Positions 21,543 through 33,381 of a stretch of 42,476 nt of DNA are shown here, in pieces. The stretch is taken from the sequence record MN850617.1. One strand, written 5' to 3'. This stretch comes from Escherichia phage forsur. A model generated the notes under the pieces. That model had not been told where the DNA came from. It searched no databases and saw nothing but the letters and a program-made list of their open reading frames with translations. Made by a program: the position numbers and the translations under genes. Within the stretch, counting starts at the first letter, position 1. Every line of letters starts with the position of its first letter.

Positions 21543-21848
21543 ATGGCATCCGTGAACAAGCAGCTCGACGGGCTGCACCGGATGCTGGTGGAGTATCTGT
21601 CCGACCGCTTGGCCGACGCACGTAGGAAAGATGAGAACGGTAATATCATCGAACCTATGGCGGCGGCTGAGCTGTCCGTGCTTCGCCAGTTCCTGAAAGA
21701 CAACGGCATTCAGGCTGATAAAGACCACGCTGACGACCTGCTCGCGCTGCAAGAACAGCTCAACAACGAGAAGACCGAGGCTGGCCGCAAGGATATCATG
21801 ACTGCTGCCATCAACTCAATCGCAGAAGATAGCGGGATGATGCACTAA
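21543..21848 (+). CDS. terminase small subunit (putative)
   Basis: 101-aa ORF immediately upstream of the large terminase gene; call is by position and size. Confidence 0.6.
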   Translation: MASVNKQLDGLHRMLVEYLSDRLADARRKDENGNIIEPMAAAELSVLRQFLKDNGIQADKDHADDLLALQEQLNNEKTEAGRKDIMTAAINSIAEDSGMMH

Positions 21849-23608
21849 TGGATTTACAACGCCGCATGGTGATGGCAGGAATCGTTCGCGCTCACTACGA
21901 GAACAACTTCCCGCTGTTCCTGCACGACTACTTCGCATGGCTGGGCTTTGACCTCACTGAAATGCAGCTCGACATTGGCCGCTACATGGCCGACCGGACG
22001 CTCAAGAACAAGTGCGTCATGGCGCAGCGTGGTGAGGCTAAGTCCACCATCGGCATTGCTCGCGCTCTGTACGAATTTGTGCAGATGCCGAACGCTACTG
22101 TCCTGCTCGTATCCGGTTCCGACGACTATGCTGGTACGCTGTCGCACGCTATCGTGTCGGCTATCATGCAATGGGACAGGTTGGAATGGTTACGCCCGGA
22201 GACTCGCGCTGGCGCACGTACATCGTACACCGATGGCTTCGACGTGCATCACGCATTCCGTATCCCTGACAAACAACCCTCTGTAAAAGCGGTCGGTATC
22301 TTCGGCCAGTTACAGGGGAACCACGTATCGCTGTTGATTGCCGATGACGTGGAGACTACCAGTAACGGTAGCTCTCCTGCCAACCGCGCCCGTATCAACA
22401 CCCTGACCAAAGAGTTCGCGGCTATCGCCAACGATGGTGCAGAGATTCTGTACCTCGGCACGCCACAGACTCAGGACTCCATCTACAACACGCTCCCGCA
22501 GCGTGGCTTCGACGTTCGCATCTGGCCCGGTCGTTTCCCAACGGTTGAGGAAGAAGAACGCTATGGCGGTTGTCTGGCCCCATGGATTAAGCAGAAGATG
22601 GAGGGCCACCCGGAACTTCGCACAGGCTACGGTATCCTTGGAAACCGTGGTGCGCAGACCGACCCGCAACGCTACTCCGAAGAAAAGCAGTTGCAGAACG
22701 AACGAGACTACCAGCAGGCAGGCTTCCAGTTGCAGTTCATGCTGGACACTTCTCTGTCGGATGCTCTCAAACAGACCTTGCATCTCAAGGACTTAATCTT
22801 CTTCCACGGCTCGCCTATCTCCGCGCCGGAAGTCTTGCATTGGTCGAATCACCCACGGCACGCCGCCGAGCTGCCACTGGATTTCCCACTCGCTCGTGCG
22901 CAGCTATTCTTGGCTGCTGATTTCTCGGACACTTATGTACCATTCGAAAATGCCTCGGCGTTTCTTGACCCTGCTGGTGGTGGGTCGGATGAATCAGTTA
23001 TCATCGTCACCGCTTCTATCGGCCCGTTTATCCACGTCCTTGGTATGCACGTCTACCACGGCGGCCAGACGGAGGAAAACATCCAGACGGCGGTGGCGTG
23101 GCTAGGTGAGCTGGGCTGCAAACGTCTCGTCATTGAGGACAACATGGGCCACGGCACCGTGACCAACATGTACCGAGGTGAGATTAAGCGGCAGAAGCTG
23201 ACCATGGGCTGCGAGGGTGTATACTCGTCCGGCCAGAAAGAGGTGCGTATCATCAACCGCCTCGGCCCAATCATGCAGCGCCACCGTGTGGTTATCCACT
23301 GGAGCGTTGTTGAAGAAGACCTGCGGTTATGCCGGGGTATGGCCAACGGTGGCCGTGAGTACAGCCTGTTCTGGCAGCTCCAGAACCTGACTCAAGACCG
23401 TCAATCCATCCCGCATGATGACCGAATTGAAACCTTAGCCGCTGCCGTGTACCTCCACGCCGAGGTGTTGCAGCAAGACGAAAACGAAGAAGCGGAGCGC
23501 CGTGCAGTCGCTGTGGCCAAAGAGTTCATCGCTAACCCTATGGGGTATGATGACCCGAAATGGCGCAGCCACAAGCCTGTACGCGGTACGCGACGGAGAA
23601 TTAGATAA
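21848..23608 (+). CDS. terminase large subunit
   Basis: 586 aa; KAVGIFGQLQGNHVSLLIADDVETTSNGSS...ILYLGTPQTQDSIYNTLPQRGFDVRIWP parallels recalled T7 gp19 ([30 protein letters not shown]...VIYLGTPQTEMTLY). Confidence 0.95.
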   Translation: MDLQRRMVMAGIVRAHYENNFPLFLHDYFAWLGFDLTEMQLDIGRYMADRTLKNKCVMAQRGEAKSTIGIARALYEFVQMPNATVLLVSGSDDYAGTLSHAIVSAIMQWDRLEWLRPETRAGARTSYTDGFDVHHAFRIPDKQPSVKAVGIFGQLQGNHVSLLIADDVETTSNGSSPANRARINTLTKEFAAIANDGAEILYLGTPQTQDSIYNTLPQRGFDVRIWPGRFPTVEEEERYGGCLAPWIKQKMEGHPELRTGYGILGNRGAQTDPQRYSEEKQLQNERDYQQAGFQLQFMLDTSLSDALKQTLHLKDLIFFHGSPISAPEVLHWSNHPRHAAELPLDFPLARAQLFLAADFSDTYVPFENASAFLDPAGGGSDESVIIVTASIGPFIHVLGMHVYHGGQTEENIQTAVAWLGELGCKRLVIEDNMGHGTVTNMYRGEIKRQKLTMGCEGVYSSGQKEVRIINRLGPIMQRHRVVIHWSVVEEDLRLCRGMANGGREYSLFWQLQNLTQDRQSIPHDDRIETLAAAVYLHAEVLQQDENEEAERRAVAVAKEFIANPMGYDDPKWRSHKPVRGTRRRIR

Positions 23609-24288
23609 TGTCCATCATCACCATCACTGATGCTCAGCGGTATGAGCTTGGTTATCGCTGCGGTATCGCAGCTAACGAGACTCAGCGCTTCATCAATGAC
23701 ACCCGTGCAGTGACGGCAGCTCAGGCTGCTGACATTGAAACGGCTATCACCAATCTGGTGGCGGCACTTGAGGCTGCTGGCTATGCTGGTACGCCGGAAG
23801 GTTCCGCTCTGCTGGCTGACGGCGCTACTGTATCTGTGGTCAACTCCGCAGGCAACGACGCGCACAATGCCACAGCCAACGTTACTGGCACCACGCTGGA
23901 TAATGTACAGCTCGTCCTGTCTACCGCAGCACTGGTAGACCACACTGACGCAACTGAGATTCGTCGCTTCGACGGCTCTATCCTTGGCATCACCACCGCT
24001 ACGGCCCGTGTAGCTGATGGTCTGCTGAGCAACGTGCGGCTCCCGGCCAACGCTGATGCAGTGGTTAACGGTACGGCTTATTCCGTCCGTAACTCTGCTG
24101 GCGCTGATGGCCACAACGCCACCGCTGTCGTGGCAAGCAACGGTGCTCTCTCCGGCTTCAACCTCGCCGCTACTGTGGCTATGGTGGATAACGGTGATGC
24201 ACTGGCAATCCCGGTCACTGGCACGTACACCAACACCGTGACCTTCGCTGTTTCCGCTGGTGCAATCACTGGCATTACCCTCTCTTAA
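23608..24288 (+). CDS. hypothetical protein with internal sequence repeat
   Basis: 226 aa; two similar segments (TVSVVNSAGNDAHNATANVTG / YSVRNSAGADGHNATAVVASNG); Ala/Thr/Gly/Asn-rich; located between terminase and lysis genes. Confidence 0.6.
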   Translation: MSIITITDAQRYELGYRCGIAANETQRFINDTRAVTAAQAADIETAITNLVAALEAAGYAGTPEGSALLADGATVSVVNSAGNDAHNATANVTGTTLDNVQLVLSTAALVDHTDATEIRRFDGSILGITTATARVADGLLSNVRLPANADAVVNGTAYSVRNSAGADGHNATAVVASNGALSGFNLAATVAMVDNGDALAIPVTGTYTNTVTFAVSAGAITGITLS

Positions 24289-24299
24289 TAGGAGTCTTT

Positions 24300-24485
24300 A
24301 TGGCACTTGTAGATTCTACCGCAGCCGAACGTGCAGAGTTCGTGGCAGCCTGTAATATGGCGGCTAAGTACCTGAACGTGTGGACTGAGGACTACTTCTT
24401 CGATACCACCAACACCACTCTGGTGGCGGCGTATCAGGCGTATGTCACTCGTGTGTCCAACGCGCTCACTGCGCTGACCAACTAA
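24300..24485 (+). CDS. hypothetical protein (61 aa)
   Basis: ORF in track, RBS AGGAG upstream. Confidence 0.5.
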   Translation: MALVDSTAAERAEFVAACNMAAKYLNVWTEDYFFDTTNTTLVAAYQAYVTRVSNALTALTN

Positions 24486-24494
24486 GGGGTCAAT

Positions 24495-24983
24495 ATGAAA
24501 CTGTCTCGGCTTATGGCCGGGGCAGTCCTGTCACTGTCCTTGACTTTGACGGGCTGCTCCGCAACAAGCGCACTGTCTGCTGTAACCTCGGCTGTCTCTC
24601 CCAATAAGCCGGAACTAACGGCACAGGTTGGCGCAGAGAACACGAAACAGGGCATCGGCTTGACTGCGAAACAGTCCGACGAAACGAAGGTCGGTGACGT
24701 ATCTGGTAACGCGCAAGTGGATACCGCTAAACAGGGTAGTGATTCGACGACTGTGAAGGACGTCACAGGAGGCTCTGTAAACGCTTCTAAGCAGGGTTCG
24801 CAGATTACCAATGGAAACGTGCAGGCTAAGACTATCGTGGTCTCTCAGAGCGACCCACGCAGTCTCCTGTGGGCATTTGGCATGGGCCTTACTTGTATCT
24901 TAGGTCTGGTGATGTGGTTTGTACCATCTCCGTGGAAGAAGAAGGTGAAAGATGACGGAAGCAAAGAAGGAGCCAGCTCCTAA
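24495..24983 (+). CDS. lipoprotein with C-terminal transmembrane segment (unimolecular-spanin-like)
   Basis: N-terminus MKLSRLMAGAVLSLSLTLTGCS is a signal peptide with lipobox LTGC; C-terminus LLWAFGMGLTCILGLVMWFV is a hydrophobic helix followed by KKK; RBS AAGGGG upstream. Confidence 0.6.
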   Translation: MKLSRLMAGAVLSLSLTLTGCSATSALSAVTSAVSPNKPELTAQVGAENTKQGIGLTAKQSDETKVGDVSGNAQVDTAKQGSDSTTVKDVTGGSVNASKQGSQITNGNVQAKTIVVSQSDPRSLLWAFGMGLTCILGLVMWFVPSPWKKKVKDDGSKEGASS

Positions 24984-25335
24984 CATCCACTCGCGTATGG
25001 GCGCTGTGGAGGCTCGTATGCAATCCGTAGAAACACGCCTCGACAAACACGAGATTCAAATCGCCAACCTTGAGAAAGGTGACGCTGCTATGCTGGCCAA
25101 GCTATCGGAGAACGACTCCCGGTGGCTGGAGATTCAGCAGCAGCTCCGTGTCGTCGAGCAAATTCAGGACATTCAAAAGACTATGAGCCACATCGGTAAG
25201 CTGTTCTCTTACGCGGCTCACGCCGTCAAGTGGTGTCTCCTGACCGCTTCACTCGTTAGCGGTATCTATCTTGCGGTCAAGGCTGGCGACCTAACGGCGC
25301 TCCAGTCCTTTATCACAACGATTATGGGGATGTAA
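24952..25335 (+). CDS. holin candidate (coiled-coil N-terminal region, C-terminal TMD)
   Basis: 127 aa; hydrophobic segment VKWCLLTASLVSGIYLAV near the C-terminus; overlaps the lipoprotein gene and directly precedes the endolysin gene. Confidence 0.4.
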   Translation: MTEAKKEPAPNIHSRMGAVEARMQSVETRLDKHEIQIANLEKGDAAMLAKLSENDSRWLEIQQQLRVVEQIQDIQKTMSHIGKLFSYAAHAVKWCLLTASLVSGIYLAVKAGDLTALQSFITTIMGM

Positions 25336-25871
25336 TGACTAACTTTGAAATCTGTATGAAGTTCACCGGGCTGGCCGAGGGTGGATACACCAAGCTGCCC
25401 GGTGACACTGGAGGGGAAACCAACCATGGAATTAGTGACGCTCGTGATGGGAAGCTGGATGGCAGAGCTTGTGGTGTCCCTACTGGGCTTGGCGGCACTG
25501 TGTGCGTGCCTATCAAAGACCTCACCAAAGAGCAAGCCGAGGCAATCTATCGCCGGGACTACTACAGCCCCATCAGAGGTGACGAGCTTCACCCTGCGAT
25601 TGCATGTGCCGTGTTTGATTACGGCGTCAACTCCGGCATCTCCCGTGCTGCTAAAGCTCTACAGCGGGTATGCGGCGTTGCACAGGACGGGGACATTGGT
25701 ACTGTCACCTTGGAAGCAGCACAACGTCTGGAACCTCACGCCGCAGCAGCAGCCATCTGTGACCTTCGTATTGCGTTCCTAAAGGCTTCTAAAGCCCCGA
25801 CAGTCGTTCGGTATAGGGATGCCTTGGTTGCTCGTGCAAAACGCTGTAGCGCTTACTGTGCGACGCTGTAG
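25335..25871 (+). CDS. endolysin, GH108-type muramidase domain with peptidoglycan-binding-like C-terminal region
   Basis: N-terminus FTGLAEGGYTKLPGDTGGETNHGIS matches the recalled GH108 signature (EGGY...D.GG.T..GI); C-terminal AAKALQRVCGVAQDGDIGTVT resembles PG-binding repeats; no signal peptide. Confidence 0.8.
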   Translation: MTNFEICMKFTGLAEGGYTKLPGDTGGETNHGISDARDGKLDGRACGVPTGLGGTVCVPIKDLTKEQAEAIYRRDYYSPIRGDELHPAIACAVFDYGVNSGISRAAKALQRVCGVAQDGDIGTVTLEAAQRLEPHAAAAAICDLRIAFLKASKAPTVVRYRDALVARAKRCSAYCATL

Positions 25872-26039
25872 GGGCATCTGAAAGCTGACACATTGAACAG
25901 GCCGTGGGTGCAATACCCCGGCTTGAAAATTGAACGTTTATGCGTGGGCCTCCCTCGACCCGAATGACCGCGCGTACCCCCATGACGTGTGCGCGGATTA
26001 GCCTCGCGACGTGCGCGATATTGCTCGCGTGCGCTGCGC

Positions 26040-26450
26040 GGCGCGTCAAGAGGATTGCCTGCGTGCGGTATAGCTCGTGCGTGTCGCGTTTCATCGTCTG
26101 CCGTGTGGCGTGCTGTGCGCTGTCCTGCTGGCTGTGCTGTGCGGTGCTGTCCTATGGGGACGCTCTGCGCTGGCTGTGCTGTGCTGCGTGCTGCGCTCGG
26201 TCGGGCGGGTATCTGTCTCTTTTGCCGTGGTACGCTCTGCGCCGTGGTGGTGCTGTGTGGTGGTGGTGCTGCCGTGGTGCTGTCCTGTCTGCTGGTCTAC
26301 TGTCTGCGCCGCCAGCTCTGCGCGTCATGCTCTGCTACCTGCTGCTACTGTCCTACTGCGTTCACTGGCTGCCGCCTGTCATCCTGTCGGATTCCATCCG
26401 TTGCCGTTCCGCGCTCGCTTGTTTCGGCTGCGCCGCGCTCGCTCTGCGTA
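26040..26450. repeat. A-depleted (C/G/T only on + strand) low-complexity block with degenerate GCTG/CTGTG/GGTG repeats; candidate terminal-repeat region
   Basis: Adenine is nearly absent on the + strand over ~400 bp, so no + frame contains a stop; non-coding position between the last late gene and the early promoters. Confidence 0.6.
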
Positions 26451-26462
26451 TCTAGCGATACA

Positions 26463-26485
26463 TATCACTATAGTCACTTTCATAA
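26463..26485 (-). promoter_or_regulatory. inverted exact copy of the T7-class promoter-like element at 4585..4607 (would fire leftward into the A-depleted block)
   Basis: + strand TATCACTATAGTCACTTTCATAA is the reverse complement of 4585..4607 (23/23). Confidence 0.4.
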
Positions 26486-26499
26486 TTATCTATTGATAT

Positions 26500-26590
26500 C
26501 AGTAACTTATAACCTATCTGATAACGGTATCTATCCTATGCAATAACCTATTCAATCAAATATTTATTCCTAATGATTACAGTAACTTAT
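26500..26590. repeat. AT-rich segment with 11-bp direct repeat CAGTAACTTAT (26500..26510 and 26580..26590)
   Basis: Read directly; copies are 80 bp apart, each preceded by TGAT; candidate origin or packaging iterons. Confidence 0.4.
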
Positions 26591-33213: not shown

Positions 33214-33381
33214 ATGTTTCGTGTATTAATGTTATTCGTACTCGTCGTTATATTGTGGGGCGCGTTATGGGTAGGCGTTGCCTATTTAATTCAGCCTTAC
33301 ATTGGCGAACAGCTTACCTCTGTAATTGGTACGCTGCTTGGGCTTTGTTGTTGGCGCAGTTGGTATGTCCAAGTGCATTGA
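33214..33381 (+). CDS. small membrane protein (55 aa)
   Basis: ATG 33214 with GGAGG upstream; MFRVLMLFVLVVILWGALWVGVAYLIQPY... has two hydrophobic helices; preceded by promoter-like GGTGACTATAT. Confidence 0.45.
   Translation: MFRVLMLFVLVVILWGALWVGVAYLIQPYIGEQLTSVIGTLLGLCCWRSWYVQVH

Follow-up and report, generated by a model that had tools for sequence, protein, structure and literature searches.

Which protein lets the endolysin of Escherichia phage forsur pass the inner membrane? Forsur belongs to the genus Bonnellvirus (type species J8-65) of the Autographiviridae, and no holin is named for this genus in the annotations or the literature that we found. We analysed the whole forsur sequence (MN850617, given as 42,476 bp by Olsen et al., PMC7552041), which is called the window in the following and in which all genes are located on the + strand. 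The question concerns three genes at 24495-25871. The first gene (24495-24983) encodes a spanin of the unimolecular type (u-spanin), the second (24952-25335), referred to as the middle gene, encodes the 127-aa protein forsur_26 with the annotation "hypothetical", and the third (25335-25871) encodes an endolysin of glycoside hydrolase family 108 (GH108). The three open reading frames (ORFs) were confirmed at these coordinates on the + strand. They represent real genes and not chance ORFs, since the 127-aa product is 100% identical to forsur_26 and 19-21 phage records contain the three genes as a conserved set. From its sequence features and gene neighborhood, we consider it probable that the middle protein is the holin of forsur and that it forms the membrane lesion by itself.

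Features of the Middle Gene and Its Product

Translation of the middle gene starts at the ATG at position 24952, a start that is supported by the invariance of M1, T2, and E3 among close homologues. A Shine-Dalgarno-like AAGGTG (24942-24947) is found 4 nt ahead of this ATG, within the u-spanin coding sequence. The N-terminal part of the protein is a predicted cytoplasmic coiled-coil helix (residues 12-90; 24985-25221), as indicated by the heptad register, which is unbroken over about residues 12-70, by AlphaFold2 (AF2), and by the hhalign comparison to XhlA described below. It is followed by a single transmembrane domain (TMD; residues 91-109; 25222-25278) with the sequence AVKWCLLTASLVSGIYLAV, a maximum Kyte-Doolittle hydropathy over 19 residues (KD19) of 1.65, and K93 and K110 as flanks. 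The alignments, AF2, and a hydrophobic moment (muH) of 1.33 define a K-A-G-D turn and a short amphipathic C-terminal helix (residues 114-127; turn and helix at 25279-25332), both predicted to be periplasmic. AF2 on the family alignment resulted in a mean predicted local distance difference test score (pLDDT) of 82.7, with a continuous helix from residue 12 to 111, a break at G112-D113, and a helix from 114 to 126. The charges around the TMD are K83 and K93 on the N-terminal side and K110, D113, and the C-terminal carboxylate on the other side. We favor a predicted topology with the N-terminus in the cytoplasm and the tail in the periplasm (N-in/C-out).

A strong Shine-Dalgarno-like GGAGG (25008-25012) is present 5 nt ahead of the in-frame Met23 (site 25008-25020), and the 105-aa form starting at Met23 is used by some database entries (P0026, P0029, PHROG 35530). 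This may represent a dual-start arrangement like that of holin/antiholin pairs and of SPP1 gene 24.1, for which internal starts were noted (PMC6316719). Met23 is not conserved in distant homologues.

The middle gene is "hypothetical" in all of the phage records carrying it (21/21), which comprise Bonnellvirus and LIMEzero (53% identity), and its product belongs to PHROG 35530, labelled "unknown function". A word-indexed search with the protein returned close relatives only. When 1.84 billion cluster representatives were searched exhaustively with a profile, about nine full-length representatives of 126-149 aa were retrieved; the remainder matched the coiled coil alone. Reciprocal tblastn corroborated the distant members, with P0035 and P0037 aligned to LIMEzero gp54 over the full length (E 1e-10 to 2e-11). 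The members follow a common plan with an N-terminal heptad-bearing helical region, a basic residue, about 16-19 hydrophobic residues, K/R/H-x-G-D, and a short amphipathic C-terminal helix; G112 and D113 are invariant across the whole family. A profile search of PDB sequences yielded generic coiled coils only (E > 0.02), and Foldseek with the model against BFVD gave no match below E 0.25, a single long helix being uninformative. The family is small and limited to a few T7-like lineages.

Linkage of the Middle Gene to Endolysin Genes

We looked up seven loci with distant homologues of the middle gene, all on uncultured T7-like contigs and six of them with readable downstream sequence. The homologue was located 0-30 nt upstream of an endolysin gene in 6/6 of these contigs. 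The endolysin in all six was a PF00959 lysozyme and not a GH108 enzyme, and none of the six contained a signal or signal-arrest-release (SAR) segment. On the seventh contig (L008), 23 codons of an overlapping downstream gene were present, beginning on the last base of the homologue. The order u-spanin, middle-gene homologue, lysozyme was seen on contig L009, and a u-spanin was absent from the available upstream sequence at L010, L014, L017, and L024. A multi-TMD gene did not adjoin the homologue in any of the related loci looked up. Searches for further loci with subgroup alignments added a single new one each. Linkage both with and without an upstream u-spanin, and across endolysin families, implies that the partnership is with a holin-dependent endolysin and not with the spanin. 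As judged from these gene neighborhoods, a linkage that survives the exchange of the endolysin family is the behavior expected of a holin.

Several of the uncultured contigs with a middle-gene homologue had no u-spanin nearby and carried instead a gene for a highly basic peptide of 41-42 aa beside the lysis genes, for example MVKKEGSKWVVRSTTGKKLGEHPTKAKANAQLRAIEANKHK (L024 5848-5973; L014 1430-1558; L007 3235-3363). Such a peptide may disrupt the outer membrane, as with the phiKT disruptin, or may be an unrelated small protein.

The middle gene occupies the exact slot of the annotated P21/HP1-type pinholin in PhiM1 and of the annotated holin in KpV74. Like members of the holin class, its product is a predicted membrane protein (127 aa) with at least one TMD, and the gene adjoins, and is co-inherited with, that of a signal-less endolysin. 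An earlier reading of this DNA, made from the sequence alone (the sequence-only reading), had proposed the middle gene as the holin candidate. Our analysis supports this choice: it is the best candidate in the genome. The role as holin is suggested by position, topology, conserved linkage to endolysin genes, and remote similarity to XhlA.

Relationship to XhlA and SPP1 gp24.1

The only recurrent Pfam match of the middle-protein family was XhlA (PF10779). The window protein reached 18.8 bits (E 0.0018), and matches were obtained for 9/15 family members with a best E of 5e-4, all of them under the gathering threshold of 34.7 bits. With SPP1 gp24.1 as the seed, a search supplied 20 XhlA proteins, whose alignment we compared to the family profile by hhalign. 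The resulting probability was 91.8% (E 7.3e-7) over 45 columns, with residues 9-58 aligned to XhlA 17-61. The alignment paired the motifs R..LE.R.D[KR]H[ED].QI and EN..W, which read R..VE.RLDKHE.QI and ENDSRW in the window protein. Because coiled coils can match spuriously, controls were included. Reversed profiles did not exceed 10.4%, and thirty heptad-block shuffles did not exceed 16.8%, with a median of 1.2%. Profile comparison thus identifies the N-terminal domain of the middle protein as a genuine remote relative of XhlA.

Like the middle protein, XhlA and gp24.1 are small, with an N-terminal coiled coil, one C-terminal TMD, and a gene beside the endolysin gene. They are holin-like proteins of Bacillus and Enterococcus phages (PF10779), while the host of forsur is Gram-negative. 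The window protein differs from XhlA by about 35 extra helical residues between EN..W and the TMD. In XhlA (about 80-95 aa), the TMD directly follows ENTTW, whereas in the window protein (127 aa) residue 58 is the last of ENDSRW and about residue 91 the first of the TMD. Its TMD is also unrelated to that of XhlA and is followed by the invariant Gly-Asp and an extra helix. While XhlA and gp24.1 are always accompanied by a two-TMD holin, the forsur cassette and the related loci have no adjoining one.

Alternative Roles of the Middle Protein

Several findings weigh against a holin that acts by itself. The TMD is moderately hydrophobic (KD 1.65) and short, with 16 residues between the flanking lysines. 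The charged C-terminal tail typical of holins is absent: the last 18 residues (KAGDLTALQSFITTIMGM) have a net charge of 0, and the charged domain is N-terminal. No holin-family match was obtained for the protein in Pfam, PHROGs, or NCBIfam. The distant homologues stem from short metagenomic contigs with incomplete gene sets. The nearest characterized relatives, XhlA of PBSX and gp24.1 of SPP1, need a partner, the two-TMD holin XhlB or gp26, and reportedly neither XhlA nor gp24.1 is lethal alone (PMC6316719, PMC10630273, PMC6834076). Finally, two small membrane proteins of forsur with two hydrophobic segments each could be such partner holins.

A hydropathy scan covered all + strand ORFs of the window. 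The u-spanin and the middle protein were the only plausible membrane proteins in the late region. Outside the early region, the + strand contained just one more, encoded by an ORF of 59 aa ahead of the RNA polymerase gene. Several small membrane proteins were flagged in the early region; other flagged hydrophobic segments were inside large soluble proteins or in alternative-frame ORFs. 

The middle protein could be an XhlA-type co-holin or accessory protein that functions together with a two-TMD partner encoded outside the cassette, like XhlA with XhlB in PBSX or gp24.1 with gp26 in SPP1. We regard this main alternative as unlikely. The remote homology to XhlA and the dependence of XhlA and gp24.1 on their partners (PMC6316719) speak for it, and two candidate partners are at hand. 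The 59-aa ORF (1703-1882) has two strong TMDs and is located just upstream of the RNA polymerase gene, its ATG overlapping the preceding gene's stop codon. Glasur has an annotation for it, and it is present in 13/21 related records. It is a real gene, but it was undetectable in J8-65, smaasur, Lidtsur, LF82-23, and LIMEzero, and we rejected it as the holin. The second candidate, at 33214-33381, belongs to the J8-65 gp11 family (66-79 aa, two hydrophobic segments) with members in 19/19 Bonnellvirus records. This gene is located in the early region, it was not detectable in LIMEzero, and in forsur a frameshift by a 1-nt insertion removed the second hydrophobic segment from a phage that was isolated as viable; it was likewise rejected. 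Neither candidate matches a holin family, no multi-TMD gene stands beside the middle-gene homologue in related loci, and a partner holin conserved across all genomes carrying the middle gene was not found.

The insertion in 33214-33381 is a single extra T near 33338 in comparison to glasur and usur, in which the product has 66 aa; the forsur product has 55 aa. Either the sequence contains an error here, or a viable phage carries a genuine inactivating mutation. The listed ORF at 1735-2124 probably begins at 1891 and then encodes a 77-aa Q-like antiterminator (PHROG 6060, E 1.5e-13).

It is improbable that the middle protein is instead a lysis regulator (antiholin or timing factor) or has an unrelated membrane function, with the GH108 enzyme exported by another route. 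Its architecture, in which much of the protein is a coiled coil in the cytoplasm and the C-terminus lacks a charged tail, is atypical for a holin and would agree with such a role, as would the missing match to holin families in Pfam and PHROGs and the possible second start at Met23, which recalls the dual starts of holin/antiholin genes. However, an endolysin without a signal depends on a hole-former, and none of the other candidates that are conserved in every genome with the cassette is a better one. A classic holin signature is seen in the tight coupling of the gene to endolysins from two unrelated families, and the lack of conservation of Met23 in distant homologues also argues against a regulator.

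The reading in which the lipoprotein is the o-spanin and the coiled-coil protein the i-spanin of a two-component, Rz/Rz1-like spanin can practically be dismissed. In its favor, some database records name the lipoprotein "Rz1A" or "Rz1-like", i-spanins are coiled-coil membrane proteins, and overlaps between spanin genes are frequent. Against it, the lipoprotein itself is equipped with a C-terminal TMD and is homologous to T1 gp11 over the whole length. The TMD of the middle protein is not at the end expected of an i-spanin, an export signal is absent, and the coil is predicted to be cytoplasmic. Homologues of the middle protein adjoin endolysin genes without a lipoprotein gene nearby, and an N-terminal TMD with a coiled coil behind it does not occur in any late protein.

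The U-Spanin Gene

The first gene of the cassette (24495-24983) encodes a protein of 162 aa and is preceded at a distance of 5 nt by a Shine-Dalgarno-like TAAGGGG (24483-24489). A regular expression search and sequence analysis identified a lipoprotein signal peptide (24495-24557) of the composition MKLSRLMAGAVLSLSLT-LTGC, in which the lipobox LTGC corresponds to codons 18-21 (24546-24557) and Cys21 is the predicted lipidated residue. According to the Lol-pathway rule, lipoproteins without Asp at position +2 are sorted to the outer membrane, and Ser at +2 of the u-spanin fits this rule. The lipobox scan of all window ORFs on both strands revealed no other credible lipoprotein gene, and hence no hidden Rz1. 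Cys-rich "lipoprotein-like" ORFs at 25940-26455 were rejected as spurious; they are located in the non-coding, GC-rich terminal-repeat region.

The C-terminal hydrophobic segment (LWAFGMGLTCILGLVMWFV, KD19 2.01) constitutes a predicted TMD at about residues 124-145 (24864-24929) and is followed by the basic cytoplasmic tail KKKVK. Single-sequence AF2 predicted only the helices of the signal and the TMD (the latter at residues 121-142, pLDDT 71-80), at an overall pLDDT of 50.7. The periplasmic part comprises 102 polar residues and no cysteine; the protein contains just two cysteines, Cys21 and Cys134 within the TMD. Periplasmic cysteine is absent from all 58 u-spanins of SpaninDB (PMC6139136).

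The protein matched PHROG 1804 ("Rz-like spanin") with an E of 2e-37. BLASTP to T1 gp11 resulted in 36% identity over 141 aa (E 5e-16), and the two proteins are alignable over their whole length, with a common TAQVGAENTKQ core. An alignment of seven homologues, including those of T1, KpV74, PhiM1, LIMEzero, and J8-65, contained 20 invariant columns; the J8-65 orthologue is 91% identical. Homologues were found by tblastn in 537 phage records, among them Drexlerviridae, Drulisvirus, and Phimunavirus. The sequence-only reading had interpreted the lipoprotein as a unimolecular spanin. The predicted lipobox and C-terminal TMD together with these homologies corroborate this interpretation, and we predict that the product is a bona fide u-spanin of the T1 gp11 family.

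T1 gp11 is the experimentally validated prototype, and complementation of lambda Rz/Rz1 was shown for T1 gp11 only (PMC6139136). Forsur u-spanin shares with it the lipoprotein signal with a canonical lipobox, the C-terminal TMD, and the cysteine-free periplasmic part, and it is about 30 residues longer. Three degenerate repeats of about 20 aa with the pattern [TA][AS]KQ... start at residues 58, 78, and 98 of the periplasmic domain (24666-24839), as seen in the alignment. One of them is additional in comparison to the T1, KP34, and PhiM1 homologues and accounts for the extra length. LIMEzero u-spanin has four such repeats, two of them additional. Tandem Repeats Finder detected no tandem repeat at the DNA level in the spanin gene. 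Two further differences to T1 are the position of the gene, which is first in the forsur cassette and last in that of T1, and the pairing with a cytoplasmic endolysin in place of a pinholin and SAR endolysin. The latter exception is already contained in the work of Kongari et al. (2018), who list J8-65 (163 aa) and LIMEzero (188 aa) as T1 gp11 family u-spanins in SpaninDB (Table 5) and describe these proteins as unusually long and as the sole family members without pinholin/SAR endolysin (PMC6139136). For Bonnellvirus, the architecture of a u-spanin had already been observed.

The Endolysin Gene

The third gene (25335-25871) encodes an endolysin of 178 aa. Its residues 12-101 match the N-acetylmuramidase domain Glyco_hydro_108 (PF05838) with 78.7 bits at a gathering (GA) cut-off of 21.2, and a catalytic-type AEGGY motif is present within LAEGGY (residues 12-18). 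A PG_binding_3-like domain (PF09374) at residues 105-149 scored 19.8 bits, which is below the GA of 24.6. The protein matched the endolysins of PHROG 315 (2e-39), and its relative in the PDB is 7dnp (E 7e-22). Hydropathy analysis revealed no signal or SAR sequence, with a maximal KD19 of 0.19 in the first 40 residues. This agrees with the earlier description as a GH108-like endolysin lacking a signal sequence, and the product is predicted to be a soluble GH108 muramidase without export signal.

The endolysin gene contains an ORF of 133 codons with a strong TMD in the +1 frame (25381-25782), which was considered as an embedded holin and rejected, as it is not under selection. Between relatives, its amino-acid changes outnumbered those of the main frame by a factor of two, and substitutions were concentrated at codon position 3 of the main frame. 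The ORF is open in 4/4 bonnellviruses compared, and it is broken and lacks the TMD in LIMEzero. Several other genes also contain open +1-frame stretches of 130-216 codons. The ORF is a by-product of codon usage.

Layout and Genomic Setting of the Cassette

The middle gene shares 32 nt (24952-24983) with the u-spanin gene and, at the last base of its stop codon, 1 nt (TAATG) with the endolysin gene. The overlap with the u-spanin gene is also seen in LIMEzero, where it measures 41 nt, and in a metagenomic relative, where it measures 8 nt. A search for promoter-like or terminator-like signals inside the cassette yielded none. The region at 24495-25871 is probably a late, translationally coupled lysis cassette that provides all three functions for lysis of a Gram-negative host. 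The region 23600-26000 has 99% DNA identity to Escherichia phage usur and 84-93% to other Bonnellvirus members.

The cassette is located downstream of the genes for the small terminase (21543-21848) and the large terminase (TerL; 21848-23608). It is the last coding unit, with the GC-rich terminal-repeat region behind it; J8-65 has 73 bp between the endolysin stop and the start of its direct terminal repeat. At 25940-26500 forsur harbors GC-rich non-coding DNA with many short degenerate direct repeats (GCTGTGC-type) and spurious Cys-rich ORFs in three frames. We take this sequence to be the terminal-repeat/concatemer-junction region, which implies that the window is a circular permutation of a linear genome with its physical end just past the endolysin gene.

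Two genes (23608-24288 and 24300-24485) separate TerL from the spanin gene. Their products have a common N-terminal module, both match PHROG 9732, and neither contains a TMD; they are probably not lysis genes. Counterparts occur at the same position in LIMEzero and in metagenomic T7-like contigs, and small genes also fill this slot in PhiM1 and KpV74.

The sequence-only reading had called the spanin-first order uncommon, which does not apply to this lineage. KP34-like (Drulisvirus) and PhiM1-like (Phimunavirus) phages are annotated with the same order, and the order spanin, holin, endolysin was described for KP34-like viruses already in 2015 (PMC4411677). In PhiM1 and KpV74, TerL is followed by conserved small genes, u-spanin, holin, and endolysin.

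Discussion

The features described above suggest the following course of lysis. The three proteins would be made together late in infection. The C-terminal TMD, its only one, would anchor the middle protein in the inner membrane, leaving the coiled coil of about 90 residues in the cytoplasm and the short tail in the periplasm. The protein would oligomerize via the coiled coil and form a lesion once a critical level is reached. The GH108 muramidase would accumulate in the cytoplasm, escape through this lesion, and degrade the peptidoglycan. The u-spanin, anchored in the outer membrane by the lipid at Cys21 and in the inner membrane by its C-terminal TMD, would be caged as long as the cell wall is intact. 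With the wall gone, it would collapse and fuse or disrupt both membranes, as proposed in the literature model for T1 gp11. More tentatively, the middle protein may be a tail-anchored protein in which the coiled coil drives both oligomerization and timing, and which shares the "co-holin" stock of XhlA and gp24.1 and yet functions independently of a partner; this fuller picture is possible, and we do not hold it with confidence.

The cassettes of KP34-like and PhiM1-like phages resemble that of forsur in the location after TerL and small genes, the gene order, the homologous u-spanin, and the overlapping genes. The difference lies in the module for opening the inner membrane and degrading the wall: PhiM1 has a P21/HP1-type pinholin (Pfam matches) and a SAR lysozyme, while forsur has an unrelated coiled-coil protein and a soluble GH108 enzyme. 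The pinholin and SAR-endolysin module of KP34, PhiM1, LIMElight, and T1 is replaced in forsur by the XhlA-like protein and a cytoplasmic endolysin. In phage lambda (S105, R, Rz/Rz1), a lesion also frees a cytoplasmic muralytic enzyme, and a periplasm-spanning protein then disrupts the outer membrane. In contrast to this similarity in principle, no component shows sequence similarity to its lambda counterpart, the gene order is reversed, the forsur spanin is unimolecular, and the proposed forsur holin has one C-terminal TMD while the lambda holin has three.

Catalogues or annotations of Bonnellvirus and its relatives already cover the GH108 enzyme, the u-spanin, and the order of the genes. The sole new part is the assignment of the middle gene as holin and its link to XhlA, which are absent from the annotations and the literature that we found. 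This assignment provides a testable answer for the one missing function in u-spanin phages of the J8-65/LIMEzero type. If it is true, about twenty annotations as "hypothetical protein" could be corrected, the XhlA lineage would reach from phages of Firmicutes to the lysis cassettes of enterobacterial podophages, and the holin-endolysin pair would be swapped as a module beside a fixed spanin. Forsur would offer a model tractable in E. coli for hole formation by a single-TMD, coiled-coil-anchored protein. If the middle protein is indeed a partner-independent holin, this would suggest that XhlA-type proteins are hole-formers in their own right.

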